Assembly (NCBI GenBank): GCA_937988825.1
Contig: CALKHT010000056.1
Coordinates: 1-64,000 of the forward strand
DNA from: an uncultured Phycisphaeraceae bacterium
GTDB taxonomy: Bacteria > Planctomycetota > Phycisphaerae > Phycisphaerales > Phycisphaeraceae
Length of the DNA: 64,000 nt
Direction of reading: 5' to 3'
The notes under the pieces were generated by a model, which saw only the letters and a list, made by a program, of their open reading frames with translations, was not told the origin of the DNA and ran no database searches. Positions 11,112 to 27,996 of the stretch are shown piece after piece. How positions within the stretch are numbered: the stretch's first letter is position 1; the number at the start of each line of letters is the position of its first letter. Both the position numbers and the translations under genes were made by a program.

Positions 11112-11981
11112 TTGATGCGATTGCCCAGACGAGATGAATACCGACCGATCAGTGCCCGGCCGCGCCACAGCCCGCGGTCGTTGGTCGTGTGGCTGATCGG
11201 ACTGAACCTGTTCATCTTCGGCCTGGATGGTCTGCTGCTGAGCAATGGCATCGGCGTGCAGCAGACAATCAATGGTGTTCCGCTCACCATTCAGGGCAGG
11301 CCGGTCATTTCCCCCCTGCTGCAGTATCTGGGCCACTTTTCCGTCGATCTTGCCATCTTTAAGGGGCATATCTGGCGTTTCATTACGTTCCAGTTCCTGC
11401 ACGCGAACCTGGCGCATCTGGGGTTCAATATGATTTCACTGTACTTCTTCGGCCCGATGGTCGAGAAGTACTGGGGGGCGTACCGATTCCTGGCGTTTTA
11501 CCTGCTGTGCGGCGCGGCGGGGGCGCTGGCATATCTGGGGCTGTGGGGCGCCGGAATGGTCGAATCGACGGCCGGCCAGCCCCTTGTTGGCGCTTCGGCA
11601 GGCATTTTCGGCGTGCTCATCGCCGGGGCGATCCTGGCGCCGGATGCCCGTGTCATGCTGCTGATCCCGCCCATTCCGATGCGACTGCGCACGTTGGCGC
11701 TGATCGCGGTGGGCATCGGAGTTTACACGGTGGTGTGGCATGGCGATGAACCGGGTTCCAACGCCGGGGGACAGGCGGCCCATCTGGGCGGAGCAGCATT
11801 GGGGTATGTCCTGATGCAGCATCCGGGCTGGCTGGGGCTGAAGCGACGCAAGCGAAGGAAACGACGCAAGGGGTTTGCAGCCGATCCTGATGAGCAAAAC
11901 CCGGATCCGCATGAGGCCGCCCCGACAGACAACGTGCCAGGGCCAGCTAAGATAGATCAGGGCAACGTAAGCCTCGACTGA
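11112..11981 (+). CDS. Rhomboid family intramembrane serine protease
   Basis: Multi-TM; catalytic GASAGIFGV (GxSG) and AHLGG histidine motif; basic C-terminal tail. Confidence 0.8.
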   Translation: MMRLPRRDEYRPISARPRHSPRSLVVWLIGLNLFIFGLDGLLLSNGIGVQQTINGVPLTIQGRPVISPLLQYLGHFSVDLAIFKGHIWRFITFQFLHANLAHLGFNMISLYFFGPMVEKYWGAYRFLAFYLLCGAAGALAYLGLWGAGMVESTAGQPLVGASAGIFGVLIAGAILAPDARVMLLIPPIPMRLRTLALIAVGIGVYTVVWHGDEPGSNAGGQAAHLGGAALGYVLMQHPGWLGLKRRKRRKRRKGFAADPDEQNPDPHEAAPTDNVPGPAKIDQGNVSLD

Positions 11982-12003: not shown

Positions 12004-12873
12004 ATGGGCTGGAATGATCGATCCTACTACTACCGTGAGAACCCCCGCATGGCGCTGGGCGGGGGGTTCAGCCGTTTCAGTGCGGTGACGTGGATCATCA
12101 TCATCAACGTGGTCGTGTTCCTGCTGGACAGCGTGCTTTGGAACTCGGCCCGTGGCAGTTCCTTCGCCCCTGTCCGGTGGGGCTATTTCAGCGTGGATAC
12201 CGCCATCCTCGGCGGACAGGTCTGGCGCTGGATCACCTTCCAGTTCCTGCACGCTGACATCTGGCACATCTTCTTCAACATGTTGGTGCTCTTTTTTTTC
12301 GGCCCGATGATCGAGGGCTACTGGGGCAGAACGCGATTTGTGATCTATTACCTGCTTTGCGGCATGGCGGGGGCGCTGCTGTTTGTCTTTTTCGTCATGG
12401 TGCCGGGGCTGCTGAATGTCAGCGCGGCTTCGCCGCTGGTGGGGGCCTCAGCGGGTGTATTTGGCGTGCTGGTCGGCTGTGCCATCGTCGCGCCGAATCA
12501 GCGGATCATGCTCCTCTTCCCGCCCATTCCCATGCAGATTCGCACACTGGTGCTGATCGTGCTGGGCTTCGCGGTGTTGGGCGTGCTGGTCGGCTCACTT
12601 AACGCGGGCGGTGACGCGGCCCACCTGGGCGGCGCGGCACTGGGGGCACTGCTCATGAAGAATCCGCGGTTGATCAGCTGGCTGAACATGCGCGGCGTGC
12701 GCTCGCGCTGGGAAGCCAGCCGCTGGCAGCGTCAGCAGCGACGCCTCGCCGCGGAAGAGGAGGAGATCGGCCGCATCCTGCAAAAGGTCAAGGACCACGG
12801 ACTGCACAGTCTCACCCGTCACGAAAAGCGGATGCTGCAGCGCGAAACAGACCGGCTGCGCAGCGCAGGGTGA
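12004..12873 (+). CDS. Rhomboid family intramembrane serine protease (tandem paralog)
   Basis: GASAGVFGVLVG and AHLGGAALG motifs; same architecture as the upstream paralog. Confidence 0.8.
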   Translation: MGWNDRSYYYRENPRMALGGGFSRFSAVTWIIIINVVVFLLDSVLWNSARGSSFAPVRWGYFSVDTAILGGQVWRWITFQFLHADIWHIFFNMLVLFFFGPMIEGYWGRTRFVIYYLLCGMAGALLFVFFVMVPGLLNVSAASPLVGASAGVFGVLVGCAIVAPNQRIMLLFPPIPMQIRTLVLIVLGFAVLGVLVGSLNAGGDAAHLGGAALGALLMKNPRLISWLNMRGVRSRWEASRWQRQQRRLAAEEEEIGRILQKVKDHGLHSLTRHEKRMLQRETDRLRSAG

Positions 12874-17001: not shown

Positions 17002-20000
17002 TCAGGACTGATCGGCTGGATCGCCCGATTCAGGCTGGTTTTTCTCCAGACGCTGGATGATGTCATCGTACCGCGCCGCGATCGTACGCAGCGAGCGTTC
17101 CATCTCGCCCAACTGGCCCGGCTGACCGGCGACAAGACGGCTGAGCGGCTCCATCCACGCCCTCATCAGCGCGAACTGCTCCTTCATCACATACAGGAAG
17201 GTCGCGGGCACCTTGTTGATGACACGGACCTCAAAGGGAACTGCCGCATCACCGTTGCCGGGGGCACCAGTGGATGGCTTACTGACACCGGGGGCCGGTT
17301 TGTCTTCGGCGGCATTGATCGGGGCGGGTGGCAGCACGGCACCGGAACGCTGGGCGATCTGCTGCATCAGCTCGCGGATCGCGTCGAGCGTGGTGGCGTC
17401 CAGCCGCGCTTCAACCGGCGCGGTGCGTGCGGCGATATCTCGCCCGGCCGCCAACGCGGCAATCGCATCGCGGATCGCGGTGATGCTCTGCACGAAGCTG
17501 GCAAGCTGCTCCGCCACAGGGGTCAGGTCGATGCGTGGCGGTTCAACATCACGCCGGCCGTTGACCGCTTCCAGCCTTGAGAGTCCCTGCGCCAGTGCGC
17601 CGTGGATATCGCCCAGATTCTGGTTCAGTCCCGCCATCTGCGACAACACCGCCGCGGTCTTGTCGTCGCCGCCAAGGGCACGCACCGAGTTGTTGCGCAC
17701 GAACGTGCGTTTGATTTTCTCCCAGCGGGCCTTTTCTTCCTCGGTGAGCCAGCCCATCATTTCGCGGAACTTGAGCAGGTTCGCTTCCGCACCGGTGGTG
17801 AGCGTCTGGGCATCCTGCTCGTAGCTGGCCATGATGAGCGTGCGCAGTTCCTGATCATTCATCACCGGCATCACCTTCTCAGCGATGCGGTTCATATTGC
17901 GATAGGAACCCTGCAGCAGGAATGGTGGCTCGGTGCGGTACTGATCCTCCTGACCGGCGGAAGCGATGTACTGCTGATTCACGCGCAGGATCACATCGCG
18001 CACGATGATGAGCTTCTTCATCACGCTCACCATCTCTTCGATTTCCTCGCGGCTGTAGTTGCCTTCAAACTCGATGTTTTCCCGGCTGTCGGTCTCGGCA
18101 ATGCGGATGACGTTGTAGACGTCCGCCTGACTGCGCGTTGCCAACGGGTTGAGTGTCGGGTTCGATGTGAGGCAGTTCTCCAGGTACGACATCTTAAAGG
18201 CTTCGGCGTGGTCGCCGATAATGTCACCCAGGTTGTAGGTGTCCGCACGGTTGGCGAGCATGTCGGGAATCCTGAACTTCTCGCCGGATTCGGTGTATGG
18301 GTTGCCCGCCATGACGATGGCGACCTTGCGGCCGCGAAAATCGTAGGTACGCGTGCGCCCCTTGTAGACACCCTCGATCCGCCGCTGAGCATCGCAGAGG
18401 CTGATGAACTTCTGCAGGAACTCCGGGCTGGTGTGCTGGATGTCGTCGATGTAGATCATCACGTTGTCGCCCATCTCGAAGGCGAGGTTGAGCTTTTCCA
18501 GCTCCTCGCGGGCGGCGGCGTTGGTGGCCTCTGCAGGGTCGATCGACGTGACGTTGTGCCCGATCGCCGGGCCATTGATCTTCATGAAGATGACGCCCAG
18601 CCGACTGGCGATGTACTCCATGAGCGTCGTCTTGCCGTAGCCTGGCGGCGAGATAAGCAGCAGCAGCCCGTTACGATCGGTGCGCGTACCCGAGCCAGCC
18701 GTACCCATCTGCTTGGCAAGGTTGTTACCAATGAGTGACAGGAAAACTTCGTTGATGAGCCGGTTACGCACGAAGGAGGTGAGTACCTTCGGTGTGAACT
18801 CCTCGATGCGCATCTCGGCGCGGGCGCGCTCAATGATCTCGTGCTTGAGCGCGGCGTAGGCCTGGTACTTCGGCACGGTGACCCGGGCGAAGTGGTTAAG
18901 CCGGGCCATGAAGGCGTTGAAGTCGAGCGTAAGCCGTCCTTCCTGAATGGTCGGGTGCGTGCCGACGAGACCTTCGATGACCGTGCGCGTGCTGACACCG
19001 ATGATACGTGTCGGCTTGACGCCACCTTCGGCGATGCGTGCGGCCGCTTCATCCACGTAGGGTTGCGCCTCACTGCGACGCGGCTCATCCAGTGTTGCAA
19101 CGTAAGCACGCAGCCAGTCACGGATGAGGGCGAACTGCCGGCGGGGATGGCCCTCCAGCGCCTCGACCGCTTCATCGAAGGCTGAGGCCTTGCGGCGCGA
19201 TTTGAGATCCGTGTTGAACGCTTCGACGAGGTTCGCGGCATCGGGGCTGACCACGAAGGCCTGCGCCGGATTGGCAAGCTCATGGCAAAGATAGGCCGCG
19301 GCCTCCTCCGCCAATGCCGGATCGAACAGGTTGTGCGGATGCTGCTCAGCGAAGGCGGTAATGAGCGGCACCAGCTCACGCTGCACACGCTGGTCCAGTC
19401 CGTTGCCGGTGAAAAGCTCGCGTGCCTTGCCCAGGCCGATCGCGTGTGCGGCCAGCGCCTTCTTGTGCACACCATCGCTCATCACGTGCCAGAAGACCGA
19501 CGCCAGCGCACGCGCCGATGGGCTGTAGCGCAGCAGGCCGATCGTCAGTTGCATTCGCAGCAGTTCGCGCAGAATGCGGGCCGCGTCGACATCGTGCACA
19601 CCCTTGGTGTACCCCTCACTGTAGCGCGGGCTCATGAACTGGCGCACCTGCTCGACCAGTACCGATTCATCTTCGGTGAGCATCGCTTCGATCTCGGCTG
19701 GTTCTCGCGCGGCAAGTTCCTGGAACATCAGCCAGGCCAGGTACTCAGCACGATACACCGCGTGATTTTCAGAGACGATTTCCTGCGACCAGACGTCCCG
19801 TGTCGCTTCCAGACGCGCATCCTCGATCGGCTCAAAAAACTGCGTGCCGGTCAGGTGCAACTGCATCCGGTTGTCTCGGGTGATGATCGTCAGGTCGATC
19901 GGCTGCGTGTTGACAGAAAAGACGTGCCGACCGAAGCGTATCGTGTTGCGTCCGCCTTCCTGCAGTTCGATCCGATCCTTGAGCTGGCGAACCGCTTCCT

Positions 20001-22554
20001 CGCGAATGCTCTTGAGGCGTGACTGAATGTCATCGACGCGCACGGTGTCGTTCAGCGCGGCCAGCTCTTCGCAGATGTCGCGAATCTTGTCGATGAGCAT
20101 ATCGCTGGCGAAGTAGCTGTTGATCGCCACGATCTCATTCATTCCCTGCACGCGCGAGCGGATGCTGTTGAGGATGCGCGTAGCTGCCTGCCCCAGTGCG
20201 TCAGCGCGGCGGTTGCGCTTCTCCACCAGTTGCAGCTTGCGATTCTCGAACGCGTTGTAGATTTCCTCTCGCTTCTCCGTAAGCTGCAGCACGAACTCGT
20301 CAAACTCGGCGAATCGGCCTTCCAGATCCTCAAGCTGCACCATGATGCGCGTGAGGTACTGATCCACCTTCTCCGGCTCGTCAGCCAGATCAAGATAATT
20401 CGCCACCGACTGGCTCAGCAGCTTCAACTGGCTGTTGAACTCGGCAATGCCTTCGGATCGCCCCAGTTCCTGCTGTTTGTTGCGCAGACGCGAGCGCGTG
20501 GCATTGATGTGACCGAAGATTTCGGAAATGGAATCGACAATCTCGGTGCGTTTGGTCGTGTCATCAATGCGAAGGTTGCTGACGACCTCGATGAGCATTT
20601 CCAGCTCATCGGCACTCTTTTGCACCTGCTGGGCCAGTTCACGCGCTTCAGTCAGTTTGGTCAGACTGTCGATACGGGCATCGTGTTCACGGGCCGCGAG
20701 ACGATAGGGATCGAGCGATGCGGGGTCCAGCAGATGCGCCACGCAGCGTTCGGACAGACTGTCTGTCTGCCGACGCACCGCATCTTCCAGTTCATCCACG
20801 CGGGCCAGGTCGACGTAACGCAGATCGCGCAGGGCGATCACCCGCCCGCGAATCTCGCGCAGGGCGGTCATCGCCTCGACAAAGACAAGGATGTTGTCGT
20901 AGATGCGGGTCGCGTTGCGGCTGACAAGCTCCTCCACCTCACGGGCGAGTTTATCGGTCTGCCGCTGCGTGTCCCGCCGGATACGCGTGACCTTTTCGTA
21001 TTCGCCCACGGCAGCCTGCGCAGCACTGCGAATCTCGCGCAGGGGTTCGGCGAGTTTCGCCGCCTCCTCGTGATCAAGCCAGAACCAGGCGTCGAGCAGA
21101 TCGGTGGTGGTGCGAACCAGATCGAGATACAGATCCGCGTAAGGATCCTTACGGTTGATGAGTTCAAGCACCTCGACGCACTCGGCCATGGCACGCACGA
21201 CATCGCGATTGCCGATCTTGTAGAGGAACGACTTGCGATCCATGTGGCTGACATGGTCAGGGCCGACAAAAGGTGTCTGCCACACCTGCACCGCGTGATG
21301 CTTCTGCGGCTCGCCGTGCTCGGGTGCCTTGAAGAAGATGAGCCGCCCGTCACCAAAGAAGGCGTATCCGTTGCTCACCAGCGGCGTCTGCACCGTCTGC
21401 TCGATGAGGTTGTAGGCGAGGATAACGTAATCGCCCGATTCGCGGTTGTAGAAGATGTAGGCGAAGTCCTCACCATTGGGCGAGGCAATACGCCGCTCAA
21501 AGAGCAGATCATCGGGCAGATTGGGAAAGCGCTGATACTTACCTGACGCCAGGTAGTACCCATGGGCGAAAAGCAGGCCATGATCCTCCGGCAGCAGCAC
21601 GCACGCTTTGCCGATGCTGTCCTCTCGAACCACCTCCTGAAGCTTCGCGTTATAGATGAAATAGCGGTAAGCGTTCTCCTGGTACGGGCGAATCTTCAGC
21701 AGGACCAGGTGGCCCACGCGAACGAAGTAGATCTCCGCATCGTCCAGCGTCTGATCCGGGTTCTCGACCGGCTCGCTGTAGATGCCTTCACCTGTGTCGG
21801 TGCTGTCCTCCACTTTGATGGTCAGATCGCCACGGATGGTTTCGACAAATACGATGTCCTCGATCGAATAGTGCGGGTACGCGCCCTGTGTCTGCATGTC
21901 GCGCGTGGCGCGCCGCCATTCGAATTCGTGTTGCGGCGGATAGCGCACCTCATGATCAGACCGGTTGCCGCAATACTTCAGCCCGTCGCCACGTACTGCC
22001 CATTTGAACGTCTTGATGTCGGTCACATCCCGACCAACACGAAAGACCATGTAAATGTGCGGCCCATCGCGAAAGAATCTTGCGAAGATCGCATTCTTGT
22101 AAAAGCGGAACAGATCCGCGAAATCCTTGCGGAAATCGTCACTGTCCAGCAGTGACAGGTCTTCCTCGTGGAACGTGCCACCCTCCAGGCGATAGGCTGC
22201 GAACACATCGCTGATCTCCACGTTCGTCTTAAGGCCGAAGTGGACGTTGAAACCCATGAGAAATCGGCCGCCTATCTCGACGATGTCGCGCGGGATACAG
22301 TGATGCGCAGTAGTGATGCGATCACTGTCGGTGAGGGCGAAGTCGATGGAGCCGAACACCTGTTTGCGCCGCGCATTGAGCCTGTCCAGCCGTTCACGCA
22401 GATCCCGGCCGTGCGCCTCAAGGCGCCTGCGGATGACCTCGTAGGCGCCCTGATCGATCTGCGCCTCGGCGGCATGCGATGGCCCGGCCACAGACGACTG
22501 TGTCGCTGCGTCGTGAGTGACTTCTTCAGGTTGAGACGCGGTGGTTCTTGCCAT
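17002..22554 (-). CDS. Giant (1850 aa) protein with a central MoxR/AAA_5-like ATPase domain and extensive coiled-coil regions
   Basis: LLLISPPGYGKTTLMEYIASRLG (Walker A), MIYIDDIQH (Walker B), AIVMAGNPYTE...IPDMLANRADTYNL (sensor/NP motif typical of the AAA_5/MoxR/dynein-like clade). Long coiled-coil stretches span about residues 480-900. No other domain recognised by eye. Confidence 0.6.
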   Translation of the reverse strand: MARTTASQPEEVTHDAATQSSVAGPSHAAEAQIDQGAYEVIRRRLEAHGRDLRERLDRLNARRKQVFGSIDFALTDSDRITTAHHCIPRDIVEIGGRFLMGFNVHFGLKTNVEISDVFAAYRLEGGTFHEEDLSLLDSDDFRKDFADLFRFYKNAIFARFFRDGPHIYMVFRVGRDVTDIKTFKWAVRGDGLKYCGNRSDHEVRYPPQHEFEWRRATRDMQTQGAYPHYSIEDIVFVETIRGDLTIKVEDSTDTGEGIYSEPVENPDQTLDDAEIYFVRVGHLVLLKIRPYQENAYRYFIYNAKLQEVVREDSIGKACVLLPEDHGLLFAHGYYLASGKYQRFPNLPDDLLFERRIASPNGEDFAYIFYNRESGDYVILAYNLIEQTVQTPLVSNGYAFFGDGRLIFFKAPEHGEPQKHHAVQVWQTPFVGPDHVSHMDRKSFLYKIGNRDVVRAMAECVEVLELINRKDPYADLYLDLVRTTTDLLDAWFWLDHEEAAKLAEPLREIRSAAQAAVGEYEKVTRIRRDTQRQTDKLAREVEELVSRNATRIYDNILVFVEAMTALREIRGRVIALRDLRYVDLARVDELEDAVRRQTDSLSERCVAHLLDPASLDPYRLAAREHDARIDSLTKLTEARELAQQVQKSADELEMLIEVVSNLRIDDTTKRTEIVDSISEIFGHINATRSRLRNKQQELGRSEGIAEFNSQLKLLSQSVANYLDLADEPEKVDQYLTRIMVQLEDLEGRFAEFDEFVLQLTEKREEIYNAFENRKLQLVEKRNRRADALGQAATRILNSIRSRVQGMNEIVAINSYFASDMLIDKIRDICEELAALNDTVRVDDIQSRLKSIREEAVRQLKDRIELQEGGRNTIRFGRHVFSVNTQPIDLTIITRDNRMQLHLTGTQFFEPIEDARLEATRDVWSQEIVSENHAVYRAEYLAWLMFQELAAREPAEIEAMLTEDESVLVEQVRQFMSPRYSEGYTKGVHDVDAARILRELLRMQLTIGLLRYSPSARALASVFWHVMSDGVHKKALAAHAIGLGKARELFTGNGLDQRVQRELVPLITAFAEQHPHNLFDPALAEEAAAYLCHELANPAQAFVVSPDAANLVEAFNTDLKSRRKASAFDEAVEALEGHPRRQFALIRDWLRAYVATLDEPRRSEAQPYVDEAAARIAEGGVKPTRIIGVSTRTVIEGLVGTHPTIQEGRLTLDFNAFMARLNHFARVTVPKYQAYAALKHEIIERARAEMRIEEFTPKVLTSFVRNRLINEVFLSLIGNNLAKQMGTAGSGTRTDRNGLLLLISPPGYGKTTLMEYIASRLGVIFMKINGPAIGHNVTSIDPAEATNAAAREELEKLNLAFEMGDNVMIYIDDIQHTSPEFLQKFISLCDAQRRIEGVYKGRTRTYDFRGRKVAIVMAGNPYTESGEKFRIPDMLANRADTYNLGDIIGDHAEAFKMSYLENCLTSNPTLNPLATRSQADVYNVIRIAETDSRENIEFEGNYSREEIEEMVSVMKKLIIVRDVILRVNQQYIASAGQEDQYRTEPPFLLQGSYRNMNRIAEKVMPVMNDQELRTLIMASYEQDAQTLTTGAEANLLKFREMMGWLTEEEKARWEKIKRTFVRNNSVRALGGDDKTAAVLSQMAGLNQNLGDIHGALAQGLSRLEAVNGRRDVEPPRIDLTPVAEQLASFVQSITAIRDAIAALAAGRDIAARTAPVEARLDATTLDAIRELMQQIAQRSGAVLPPAPINAAEDKPAPGVSKPSTGAPGNGDAAVPFEVRVINKVPATFLYVMKEQFALMRAWMEPLSRLVAGQPGQLGEMERSLRTIAARYDDIIQRLEKNQPESGDPADQS

Positions 22555-25941: not shown

Positions 25942-27996
25942 CTACTTATGCCCCAGCACCGCCACGCCGTCCCACATGCGCGGCGGAGCATCGATGTACT
26001 GGCGGCAGCGGGCTGCCAGGGTCGCCGACGCCGGGTCGCCGTATCGTTTGACCAGCGCCTCAAACCGTGCCGCTGCCTCGGTGAAATGGCCCTCAAAGTA
26101 GATCGCCAGTGCCCGCTCGTATGCGTCGCGCAGGAGCAGCAACCGTTCATCAACCTCGCCCGACACACCCAGTAGCTCGAACACATCCGTCGGATGTGCC
26201 CTGCCTTTGACGACCACGCGGTCGAGCTGCCGCCAGTGGAACTGATCACCTGTGCTTTGCTGAACCGCATCGGACGCCAGCAGGTGCGTGCCATACACCT
26301 TGTTGAGCGATTCGAGGCGGCTGGTGAGATTGACGCCGTCGCCCATCGCAGTGTAGGTCAGATGATCAGCAGTGCCGACGTTTCCCACGACAACGCGGTC
26401 AGTGTGTAGACCGATGCGCTGCTCCAGCAGGATACGGCCATCGCGCTGGCGTTGCTCGTTGACCTCGCGCAGACGTCGCTGCGAATCGAGTGCCGCCCGA
26501 CATGCCGCAGCGGAATGGTCCGGCACCGGCAGCGGCGCGTTGAAGAAGGCGAAGATGCCATCGCCGACGAACTGCACCAGCGTACCCTTGTGCCGCGCCA
26601 GCGCATCGGCGGTTGTTTCAAAGTAGGCGGACAAATCCTCCACGACACGATCAGGTGTGCGCGACTCGCTGTGCCAGGTGAAGTTCGCCAGATCGCTGAA
26701 CATCATTGTGACCTCGCGCACCTGTCCGCCGAGCTTCGCTTCCTCACCGTTGGCGAGCAGCGACCTCACAAGCTCGGCCGGCACATAACGTGAGAAAGAC
26801 CTTAGTCCCGCCTTCATGCGTTCCGCCGCAGCAATAACGGTGGTTACCTCGGCAATGCGTGAGGGTTGCATCGCCTCGCCGGTCAAATCGAACCGGCCGA
26901 TGCGATCCAGCTCCTGTGACACCTCGCGCAGCGGTCGGGTCATGCGCTGCGTGAAGCGATAGCCCAGCACAATCGCGGTGAGCACCGCCAGTGCGCCAAT
27001 GCTCGACGCCCAGATGGCGTTGTAGCGGGCGACATGCAGGTACTCATCGGTCGGCACAAGCACGGCGAGCATGATCTGTCCGCCACCACCGAGACTGATG
27101 TGGTCGACCAGCGTGGCATACGCCTGCCCACCGAACGATAACACCCGGCGGTGCGTACCGTTATCTTCCATCACTGCGGCCCGCAGTTCTGCCGGGGTGG
27201 GCACGGTCACATCATCCTGCGGTGCGGTGCCGGCAATGAGCTGGCCTTGTGGCGAGAGAATGAAAATGCTGCCGGCTGAATCACCGCGCGTTTCTTCAAG
27301 AAAATGTTGCAGGGCCGTGACGGTCAGGTCGATCGTCAGCACACCGCGCAGCTCGCCATCCTTCGTGTAGATGGGCAGGCTTGTGGTGATCCCGCGTTCC
27401 TCGACGCCATAAAAGGTGTAAGGTTCGCTCCACGCGATGCCGCGGGCCCGCACCGCGTCCTGATACCAGGGACGATTGCGTGGATCGAAGTCTGGCGGCC
27501 CGGGGCCGTCGTAAACCAGTTGGCCATCACGCATGAGATAGTCGTACGCTTCGGGACCATCGTCCGCGACGGAGTAGTTGACGATGATCTCACCATCGGG
27601 CCGACGATTCGCCCCCACGAAAAGGCCATCCGATTCCTGTCCGTAGGAAACCCACTCCAGCCCCTCATCGGTGGCGATCACCCGCGCCAGTGCCATACCC
27701 ACCGCCTGCCAGTCCAGCGGCGGCGTCAGCAACAGTTCCTGATGGCCAGCCAGATAAAGCAGCACCGATTCAGCGCTGCGAATGCGGGCATCCACCTTGT
27801 GTCGCACCGATGTGGCTGTGCTGGCCAGATATCGATTGCTCAGATCCTCCACCGACTGGCGGGTGGATATGTACGCCACCGTCGCAACAACCAGCACCGT
27901 ACCGAGCAGTGTGCTCAGCAGGAGCATCAGCACCGCCGTGCGCAGACGAAACGTCATGCGCTCGCGCGATTGAAACTTGTTCCGACGTCGCGGCAT
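25942..27996 (-). CDS. Class III adenylate/guanylate cyclase with periplasmic Cache-like sensor and TM/HAMP region
   Basis: N-terminal TM, a large periplasmic domain, a second TM, then the CHD catalytic core (TMMFSDLANFT...LVQFVGDGIFAFFNAP...GLHTDRVVVGNVGT...YTAMGDGVNLTSRLE), followed by a C-terminal helical region. Confidence 0.8.
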   Translation of the reverse strand: MPRRRNKFQSRERMTFRLRTAVLMLLLSTLLGTVLVVATVAYISTRQSVEDLSNRYLASTATSVRHKVDARIRSAESVLLYLAGHQELLLTPPLDWQAVGMALARVIATDEGLEWVSYGQESDGLFVGANRRPDGEIIVNYSVADDGPEAYDYLMRDGQLVYDGPGPPDFDPRNRPWYQDAVRARGIAWSEPYTFYGVEERGITTSLPIYTKDGELRGVLTIDLTVTALQHFLEETRGDSAGSIFILSPQGQLIAGTAPQDDVTVPTPAELRAAVMEDNGTHRRVLSFGGQAYATLVDHISLGGGGQIMLAVLVPTDEYLHVARYNAIWASSIGALAVLTAIVLGYRFTQRMTRPLREVSQELDRIGRFDLTGEAMQPSRIAEVTTVIAAAERMKAGLRSFSRYVPAELVRSLLANGEEAKLGGQVREVTMMFSDLANFTWHSESRTPDRVVEDLSAYFETTADALARHKGTLVQFVGDGIFAFFNAPLPVPDHSAAACRAALDSQRRLREVNEQRQRDGRILLEQRIGLHTDRVVVGNVGTADHLTYTAMGDGVNLTSRLESLNKVYGTHLLASDAVQQSTGDQFHWRQLDRVVVKGRAHPTDVFELLGVSGEVDERLLLLRDAYERALAIYFEGHFTEAAARFEALVKRYGDPASATLAARCRQYIDAPPRMWDGVAVLGHK

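Follow-up and report, generated by a model that had tools for sequence, protein, structure and literature searches.

MoxR-type AAA+ ATPases act as hexamers and use an adaptor to remodel particular complexes, as is the case for the partnerships CbbQ-CbbO, NorQ-NorD and RavA-ViaA/LdcI. Flotillins belong to the SPFH proteins and make up large, cage-like scaffolds on the cytoplasmic side of the membrane; the SPFH cage of HflK/C surrounds the AAA+ protease FtsH. To our knowledge, no ATP-consuming regulator of flotillin assemblies has been reported. Here, we analyze a stretch of 64,000 nucleotides from an uncultured Phycisphaeraceae bacterium (contig CALKHT010000056.1, positions 1 to 64,000, hereafter the window), which encodes a giant, 1850-residue ATPase with a single MoxR-class AAA+ module directly downstream of genes for a YqiJ-like membrane protein and a YqiK-type flotillin (Table 1).

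Operons of this type have already been described from comparative genomics, with no function tested (Ravi et al. 2024, mSystems, PMC11237479). In that article, a component termed 'Betapropeller + Coiled-coil + AAA-ATPase' appears in operons with CesT/Tir-PspA, YqiJ-YuaF and Band-7-flotillin proteins, abbreviated operons lacking PspA are described as widespread, PspA is also reported together with a two-domain AAA+ protein and genes of ABC transporters, and the ATPase is called 'novel', apparently without being assigned to the MoxR clade. The published ATPase has the same domain order (beta, helical array, AAA) and the same upstream YqiJ and Band-7/flotillin genes as the one in the window, and the Dokdonia donghaensis entry in the article's Table S3 agrees gene for gene with Bacteroidota loci analyzed here (divergent helix-turn-helix (HTH) plus protease gene, CesT_Tir, PspA, YqiJ, flotillin, ATPase). 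In contrast, the window contains neither a CesT_Tir nor a YjfJ-type PspA gene within about 10 kb and has instead, after the ATPase gene, genes for a divergent PspA-like protein and a Cdc48-like AAA protein.

Conserved gene order and family membership

The giant gene has an ATG start codon and not a single internal stop (translation of 17002-22554, minus strand), and its codon usage resembles that of ten adjacent genes (relative synonymous codon usage, r = 0.96; GC content at third codon positions, 0.76). Two claims of an earlier, sequence-only reading, namely that the protein is encoded in one open reading frame without frameshift and that the codon usage is that of the genome, were thus borne out. 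A public assembly carries an identical protein (P0001). With full-length homologues that are 52-78% identical and thousands of relatives, the gene is real and under selection. The protein is soluble; a hydropathy scan along all of its 1850 residues gave no window resembling a transmembrane segment. A promoter/terminator scan returned no promoter-like sites, and terminator-like sites were no commoner than in shuffled sequence.

The identity of the upstream neighbor as a flotillin had to be established via E. coli YqiK, because Pfam is almost silent on this protein and its 23 orthologues. The window copy has no Pfam match at all, and 23 of the 24 YqiK-type flotillins (window copy plus orthologues, alignment A6) escape both Band_7 and Flot at E 0.1. 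Therefore, domain-based surveys of SPFH proteins would overlook this subfamily. When the family was aligned with E. coli YqiK using hhalign, a probability of 99.96% and an E value of 3e-39 over 390 columns resulted, which agrees with the flotillin that the sequence-only reading had placed next to the giant gene. The protein also has the expected layout, an N-terminal transmembrane segment (hydropathy window at residues 3-43) followed by the SPFH domain, an Ala/Glu-rich coiled coil and a flotillin C-terminus; a BLASTP comparison of the C-terminal 174 residues with YqiK was not significant. The small membrane protein encoded further upstream is related to E. coli YqiJ (BLASTP, E 0.003), contains transmembrane windows and matches Pfam YqiJ_N with E 1e-4 and 22.9 bits, just below the cut-off of 23 bits.

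Gene order was compared across 80 related loci, in which open reading frames were called and then searched with the window proteins and with family profiles. Fifty-six loci were informative, i.e., they contained a complete N-terminus of the giant ATPase plus at least 3.5 kb of upstream sequence. A flotillin-like gene lies directly upstream of the ATPase gene on the same strand in 53 of these 56, and a YqiJ-like gene is also present upstream in 50. The loci stem from Planctomycetota, Verrucomicrobiota, Bacteroidota, Desulfobacterota, Kiritimatiellota and Omnitrophota. The window has the same order, YqiJ, flotillin and ATPase on one strand. Database annotations point in the same direction: on a Streptomyces plasmid, a 'flotillin family protein' is followed by a 'DNA repair ATPase', and on the Pseudomonas plasmid pQBR103 the annotated order is YjfI, PspA/IM30, rhomboid protease, DUF2491, DUF350, DUF1190, glutathionylspermidine synthase, a hypothetical protein, SPFH and 'DNA repair ATPase'.

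Some loci deviate in detail. In several Bacteroidota and Verrucomicrobiota, small unrelated genes are situated between the flotillin and ATPase genes, encoding DMP19-like, DUF3997, DUF3784 and PD-(D/E)XK (PDDEXK_3) proteins (loci L038, 5240-6326; L071, 5807-6556; L029, 6246-6665; and L077). In seven Bacteroidota loci (L031, L041, L045, L050, L053, L058 and L069), a divergently oriented gene for a LexA/CI-like protein with HTH_3 and Peptidase_S24 domains (e.g., L050, 450-1226, minus strand) precedes the genes for CesT_Tir, PspA, YqiJ, flotillin and ATPase, which hints at control of the Bacteroidota operon by an autocleaving repressor.

The giant ATPase belongs to the family known as DUF3686 in Pfam and as 'DNA repair ATPase' at NCBI. 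Apart from its ATPase motifs, the protein had been considered unrecognizable in the sequence-only reading, and this view has to be abandoned. DUF3686 (PF12458) matches residues 51-491 over profile positions 1-448 of 448 (E 2e-182, 607 bits versus a cut-off of 25), DUF7902 matches residues 613-696 (E 8.5e-24, 84 bits), and AAA_5, AAA and AAA_22 match at residues 1298-1422 (E around 1e-6). NCBIfam yielded sub-threshold P-loop matches to RuvB only, covering about 45 residues around the P-loop with 21 bits versus a model cut-off of 282. With a word-indexed search, 3637 proteins were retrieved (E ≤ 1e-5). The top 120 of these share 52-100% identity with the query over 88-100% of its length (98-100% in most cases), originate mainly from Planctomycetota and in many cases bear the NCBI name 'DNA repair ATPase'; collinear full-length homologues with this name have 52-78% identity at 98-100% query coverage. 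An exhaustive search with residues 1-500 gave 726 clusters (50%-identity representatives) at E ≤ 1e-3, with the DUF3686 domain N-terminal in every cluster and full-length members of 1600-1930 residues, and two degenerate peptide patterns were found in at least 596 stretches in species-representative genomes. The closest genome is that of another uncultured Phycisphaeraceae bacterium (locus L001, 74-78% identity). By tblastn, the family was detected in records of a plasmid collection, some of them chromosome-sized, from Hymenobacter, Streptomyces, Nonomuraea, Deinococcus, Pseudomonas, Proteus, Vibrio, Photobacterium and Halomonas, while it was absent from 50,697 phage records. The giant gene is split in a few cases: in the Bacteroidetes locus L047 (116-6986), a 506-aa open reading frame with AAA_22/AAA_35 domains, probably a mobile-element insertion, separates pieces of 934 and 715 aa, and split copies are also present in L015 and L072.

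Our literature search found no paper mentioning DUF3686 or PF12458, no experimental study of this ATPase family and none joining it with flotillin, SPFH or YqiK. It is therefore correct, as had been stated earlier, that the protein cannot be assigned to an experimentally characterized family, and a well-characterized protein with an unrelated neighborhood was looked for and did not emerge. The novelty once attached to the protein holds insofar as it is experimentally uncharacterized, but it is much lowered because the family has already been catalogued by Pfam, where DUF3686 is described as 'ATPase involved in DNA repair', by NCBI naming and by Ravi et al. (2024).

Domain anatomy and the AAA+ module

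The architecture of the protein was derived from two AlphaFold models, both based on 109-sequence alignments and covering residues 1-1200 (mean predicted local distance difference test (pLDDT) score 85.8) and 1150-1850 (mean pLDDT 77.4); regional conservation was assessed with a diverse set of 64 homologues, whose overall identity is 31-48%. The first 27 residues are disordered. They are followed by a helix (residues 28-67) and a beta-rich domain of about 27 strands (residues 73-426), which we call beta-propeller-like on the basis of Foldseek hits with low template modeling (TM) scores. Helical arrays, interrupted by a small beta domain, connect this N-terminal part to a beta element with a long helix at about residues 1190-1250, and the AAA+ core comes next. 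Conservation is highest in the AAA core (72% identical) and lower in the beta domain (41%) and in the helical arrays (29-40%), the latter having virtually no gaps. The analogy to SMC proteins or the dynein stalk that had been drawn earlier does not fit the model. As for the region behind the ATPase, which had been read as more than 400 residues of coiled coil, helices are indeed present, but the roughly 250 residues after the lid are weakly conserved or missing in distant members: residues 1601-1850 have 45-76% gaps relative to distant homologues while being conserved among those from Planctomycetota. They include a disordered Pro/Ala/Gly-rich linker (about residues 1738-1783, pLDDT < 50) and a two-helix end module (about residues 1784-1838).

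The giant ATPase carries a single AAA+ module, and this module is of the MoxR class, as had been proposed earlier and as is now borne out by the Pfam AAA_5 match and by the modeled fold, which is nearest to MoxR members. All four motifs quoted in the sequence-only reading exist, but they occupy residues 1303-1442, about 130 residues beyond the range of 1170-1330 given there. The sequences SPPGYGKTT (Walker A), AGNPYT (sensor 1) and NRAD (arginine finger) are essentially invariant across 186 full-length members. In the same set, Walker B always reads h-h-Y-h-D-D-I-Q-H, i.e., it has D-D and not D-E. The model contains a pre-sensor-1 beta hairpin at about residues 1392-1405, and the helix-2 region (about residues 1328-1345) consists of a short helix and a loop. 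Sequence and profile searches of the PDB with the family retrieved p97/Cdc48 and RuvB with P-loop-level likeness only; they are uninformative about the AAA+ clade.

Comparison with characterized MoxR proteins revealed common as well as distinct features. The stretch from sensor 1 to the arginine finger follows the AAA_5/MoxR pattern seen in CbbQ, NorQ (PDB 6l1q, 9qh4) and RavA; the sequence-only reading had noticed this pattern, and the Pfam AAA_5 match extends over it. Like RavA, the giant ATPase has helical and beta accessory domains on its AAA+ core that could grip a large oligomeric partner. CbbQ, NorQ and RavA, however, have only about 260-500 residues, whereas the giant ATPase has 1850, with 1290 of them ahead of the AAA+ core. 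Furthermore, these proteins have a D-E Walker B and an enzyme complex as partner, in contrast to D-D and a flotillin partner here, and none of the genes called within 10 kb to either side of the giant gene encodes a VWA-domain protein.

PspA-like gene, Cdc48-like AAA gene and other neighbors

The 273-residue protein encoded after the giant ATPase is a probable divergent PspA/IM30, judging from sequence comparison. The sequence-only reading had named this neighbor PspA outright, and the likeness of orthologues and profiles speaks in favor of it: 17 of 38 orthologues reach PspA_IM30 (PF04012; best E 1e-6), Vipp1/PspA rank first among the PDB matches of the family profile, albeit with E 0.045 only, and NCBI and JGI give the name PspA/IM30 to some homologues. 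On the other hand, the window copy itself has no PspA match in Pfam or NCBIfam. An hhalign comparison of its family with YjfJ-type PspA was negative (probability 1.6%).

Within the 80 loci, PspA genes occur within 10 kb in 20 cases, and their recruitment has taken at least three different forms. CesT_Tir and PspA_IM30 genes are located upstream of yqiJ in Bacteroidota, preceded by the divergent gene for the HTH and S24 peptidase protein; CesT_Tir / YjfJ-type PspA is present in 13-16 Bacteroidota loci and on pQBR103. In L030 and L036, PspA_IM30 is encoded directly downstream of the ATPase, and the divergent 273-residue protein is encoded downstream in the window and in L001-L003 (on the opposite strand in L026). 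Adjacency to PspA is not a general feature of the family, and what stands beside the triad in the window is a separate module of a PspA-like and an AAA gene. For the AAA protein of 604 residues, the best PDB sequence matches are VAT, Cdc48 and AFG2 (E 1e-22); its N-terminal half, which may be a degenerate AAA-like domain, has a weak likeness to the Vps4 lid (E 0.04). Elsewhere, the same pair (52-57% identity) is found in operons with genes for VWA, DUF748/OmpA-domain and ABC-transporter proteins that lack flotillin and the giant ATPase (L085, 9001-14650; L087, 2462-8109); the AAA protein of the window shares 57% identity with its counterpart in such PspA-like/ABC-transporter operons. Because the pair occurs without flotillin in these operons, the cluster in the window consists of two separable modules.

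Further genes flank the cluster. A gene for an adenylate/guanylate cyclase with a dCache sensor (25942-27996, minus strand) lies directly upstream of the YqiJ-like gene on the same strand; it has no counterpart across the 80 related loci and is probably unrelated to the cluster. Just past the other end, two tandem rhomboid protease genes (11112-11981 and 12004-12873, both on the plus strand; Pfam Rhomboid, E about 1e-26 each) run convergently toward the cluster. A rhomboid gene also directly follows PspA in the similar cluster on pQBR103 (L083, 2472-3026), and rhomboids may be recurrently linked with flotillin/PspA modules.

Table 1. Positions of the genes, protein domains and ATPase motifs discussed in the text.
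Feature	Position (nt)	Strand	Remarks
Giant ATPase gene	17002..22554	-	1850 aa; DUF3686 / DUF7902 / MoxR-type AAA+; from open reading frame list, translation and Pfam
YqiK-type flotillin, 713 aa	22663..24804	-	upstream of giant gene; transmembrane segment, SPFH, coiled coil
YqiJ/NfeD-like multi-pass membrane protein, 242 aa	24872..25600	-	first gene of the triad; longest open reading frame reaches 25690
Probable divergent PspA/IM30-like helical protein, 273 aa	16151..16972	-	29 nt after giant gene; outside conserved triad
Classical-clade AAA ATPase, 604 aa	14160..15974	-	Walker A GPIGSGKT, Walker B IIFVDEAD; Pfam AAA; partner of PspA-like gene
DUF3686 domain, residues 51-491	21082..22404	-	N-terminal helix 28-67, then beta-rich, beta-propeller-like domain (strands 73-426)
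Helical array, residues 443-862	19969..21228	-	20-50-residue helices, helical-bundle or spectrin-like repeats
DUF7902, residues 613-696	20467-20718	-	inside helical array
Small beta domain, residues 871-909	19828..19944	-	AlphaFold model; preceding loop of low confidence; 42% mean identity to distant homologues
All-helical domain, residues 935-1175	19030..19752	-	AlphaFold model; least conserved internal region, 26%
AAA+ alpha/beta core, residues 1291-1445	18220..18684	-	Walker A, Walker B, sensor 1, arginine finger
Walker A SPPGYGKTT, K1308	18625-18648	-	PPGYGKTT = residues 1303-1310
Walker B IYIDDIQH, D1370, D1371	18433-18456	-	residues 1367-1374
Sensor 1 N1418, arginine finger R1436	18229-18309	-	AGNPY 1416-1420; MLANRADTYNL 1432-1442
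AAA+ lid and conserved helical extension, residues 1446-1600	17755..18219	-	AlphaFold model; 48% identity to distant homologues
Clade-specific C-terminus, residues 1601-1850	17005..17754	-	helices, disordered linker, helical end module

Possible functions of the giant ATPase

The most likely function of the giant ATPase, to which we give an even chance, is that of an ATP-driven remodeler of flotillin assemblies, including the formation of a hexamer, docking via the propeller tips and remodeling of the scaffold. In such a mechanism, the AAA+ modules would come together as a hexameric ring of the MoxR kind, and beta-propeller-like domains on long helical arms would replace the VWA adaptor of other MoxR ATPases, attaching to the flotillin/YqiJ assembly or to its clients. 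During membrane stress, ATP would then be bound and hydrolyzed to bring about remodeling, disassembly or recycling of the flotillin scaffold. In the Phycisphaeraceae genome, the triad could form a five-gene membrane-maintenance cluster together with the PspA/ESCRT-III-like protein and the Cdc48/Vps4-like AAA protein. The sequence-only reading had suggested a role at the membrane from the position between flotillin and PspA; the conserved order of YqiJ, flotillin and ATPase and the recurrence of PspA genes nearby keep this plausible, although adjacency to PspA is not family-wide. FtsH with HflK/C is likewise an AAA+ machine paired with an SPFH membrane cage, a likeness that is functional only: FtsH is a membrane-anchored protease of the classical AAA clade, whereas the giant ATPase is soluble, MoxR-like and devoid of a protease domain. 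Several points weigh against the remodeler. The link between the giant ATPase and flotillin is drawn from gene order, three of the 56 informative loci are without flotillin, and an ATPase of this kind is missing from many YqiJK operons, among them the one in E. coli. In addition, the D-D Walker B present in every member may mean slow hydrolysis and thus a nucleotide switch rather than a motor.

This last point is the starting position for a different proposal, in which the protein is a nucleotide-gated scaffold or tether, the AAA ring holding six long arms that organize or space flotillin domains and ATP binding acting as an assembly switch. The usual catalytic glutamate is indeed replaced throughout, and the length of the helical array is strictly kept, essentially without gaps across distant homologues, as expected of a spacer or ruler. 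Yet, invariance extends to Walker A, sensor 1 and the arginine finger, normally a sign that hydrolysis matters, and catalysis can still take place with aspartate as the second Walker B residue. We regard such a scaffold as rather unlikely. Much the same low probability attaches to the view that PspA/ESCRT-III polymers are the main target of the ATPase, which would make it a counterpart of Vps4 in bacteria, with flotillin serving as a membrane platform only. PspA adjoins the triad in three independent layouts (upstream as CesT_Tir-PspA in Bacteroidota and on pQBR103, in L030/L036, and in the window and L001-L003), an AAA+ gene next to one that encodes an ESCRT-III-superfamily protein (here PspA-like) is also reminiscent of Vps4-ESCRT-III (CdvC/CdvB), and according to a 2025 review bacteria seem to lack a Vps4-like regulator of PspA (PMC7619361). 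Against this stand the 20 of 80 loci with PspA within 10 kb as compared to 53 of 56 with flotillin, and the fact that the PspA-like gene in the window has a classical-clade AAA of its own, with which it travels independently elsewhere. Unlike Vps4, the giant ATPase falls outside the classical clade and lacks an MIT domain; the 604-residue AAA is the better Vps4 analogue.

A role in phage defense or another conflict system that uses membrane scaffolds appears improbable. It could explain why the family occurs on megaplasmids such as pQBR103 and on Streptomyces and Deinococcus plasmids, why a divergent gene for an HTH and S24 peptidase repressor stands beside the Bacteroidota loci, and why DMP19-like, PD-(D/E)XK and Uma2 genes are found in or near some loci. 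A weak PADLOC match to LmuB was also obtained; it is limited to helical residues 496-895, and an LmuB identity was rejected as coiled-coil noise. Moreover, no effector gene is conserved with the ATPase, the triad is kept across phyla including chromosomal loci, and the 50,697 phage records were devoid of the family. Least credible of all is a DNA-repair ATPase in the sense of the database name. The giant protein shares large size, a long helical region and the label with SMC, SbcC and RecN, but in those proteins an antiparallel coiled coil divides the ABC-type head, whereas the giant ATPase has one contiguous AAA+ module and helices of 20-50 residues in short bundles. Searches of Pfam and NCBIfam gave no significant SMC_N or SbcC match and no DNA-binding, nuclease or SMC/ABC-type head domain. 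What speaks for DNA repair are the names given by Pfam and NCBI and the weak, short RuvB likeness of the P-loop, with a score far below the model cut-off; as no supporting feature was found beyond these, and as the literature search brought up no paper on the domain, we rejected this reading. The conserved neighbors YqiJ and flotillin are membrane proteins and not the products of repair genes such as sbcD or rec. Because the giant gene nearly always follows a flotillin gene, a remodeler of membrane scaffolds is more likely than a DNA-repair enzyme.

Bacterial flotillins and PspA are central to membrane organization and repair. For the individual case of the window, our analysis adds little to the published comparative genomics; new are the assignment to the MoxR clade, the invariant D-D Walker B, the quantified synteny with flotillin and the juxtaposed module of PspA-like and Cdc48-like AAA genes. 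The family as a whole is large, spans many phyla, is tightly linked to flotillin and has a very strongly conserved AAA+ core, and yet it carries a misleading 'DNA repair' name. Tractable carriers exist, such as pQBR103 of Pseudomonas fluorescens SBW25, Streptomyces, Proteus, Vibrio and Hymenobacter, and render the remodeler hypothesis directly testable. As a tentative extension, the DUF3686 protein might be the missing energy source of flotillin dynamics, a six-armed MoxR-type machine of about 1.2 MDa whose propeller-like tips would take hold of the YqiK/YqiJ cage and cause its opening, disassembly or recycling, and which in some lineages would also hand damaged membrane over to PspA/ESCRT-III. 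If true, this would constitute an ATP-driven flotillin cycle without a characterized counterpart in any domain of life.

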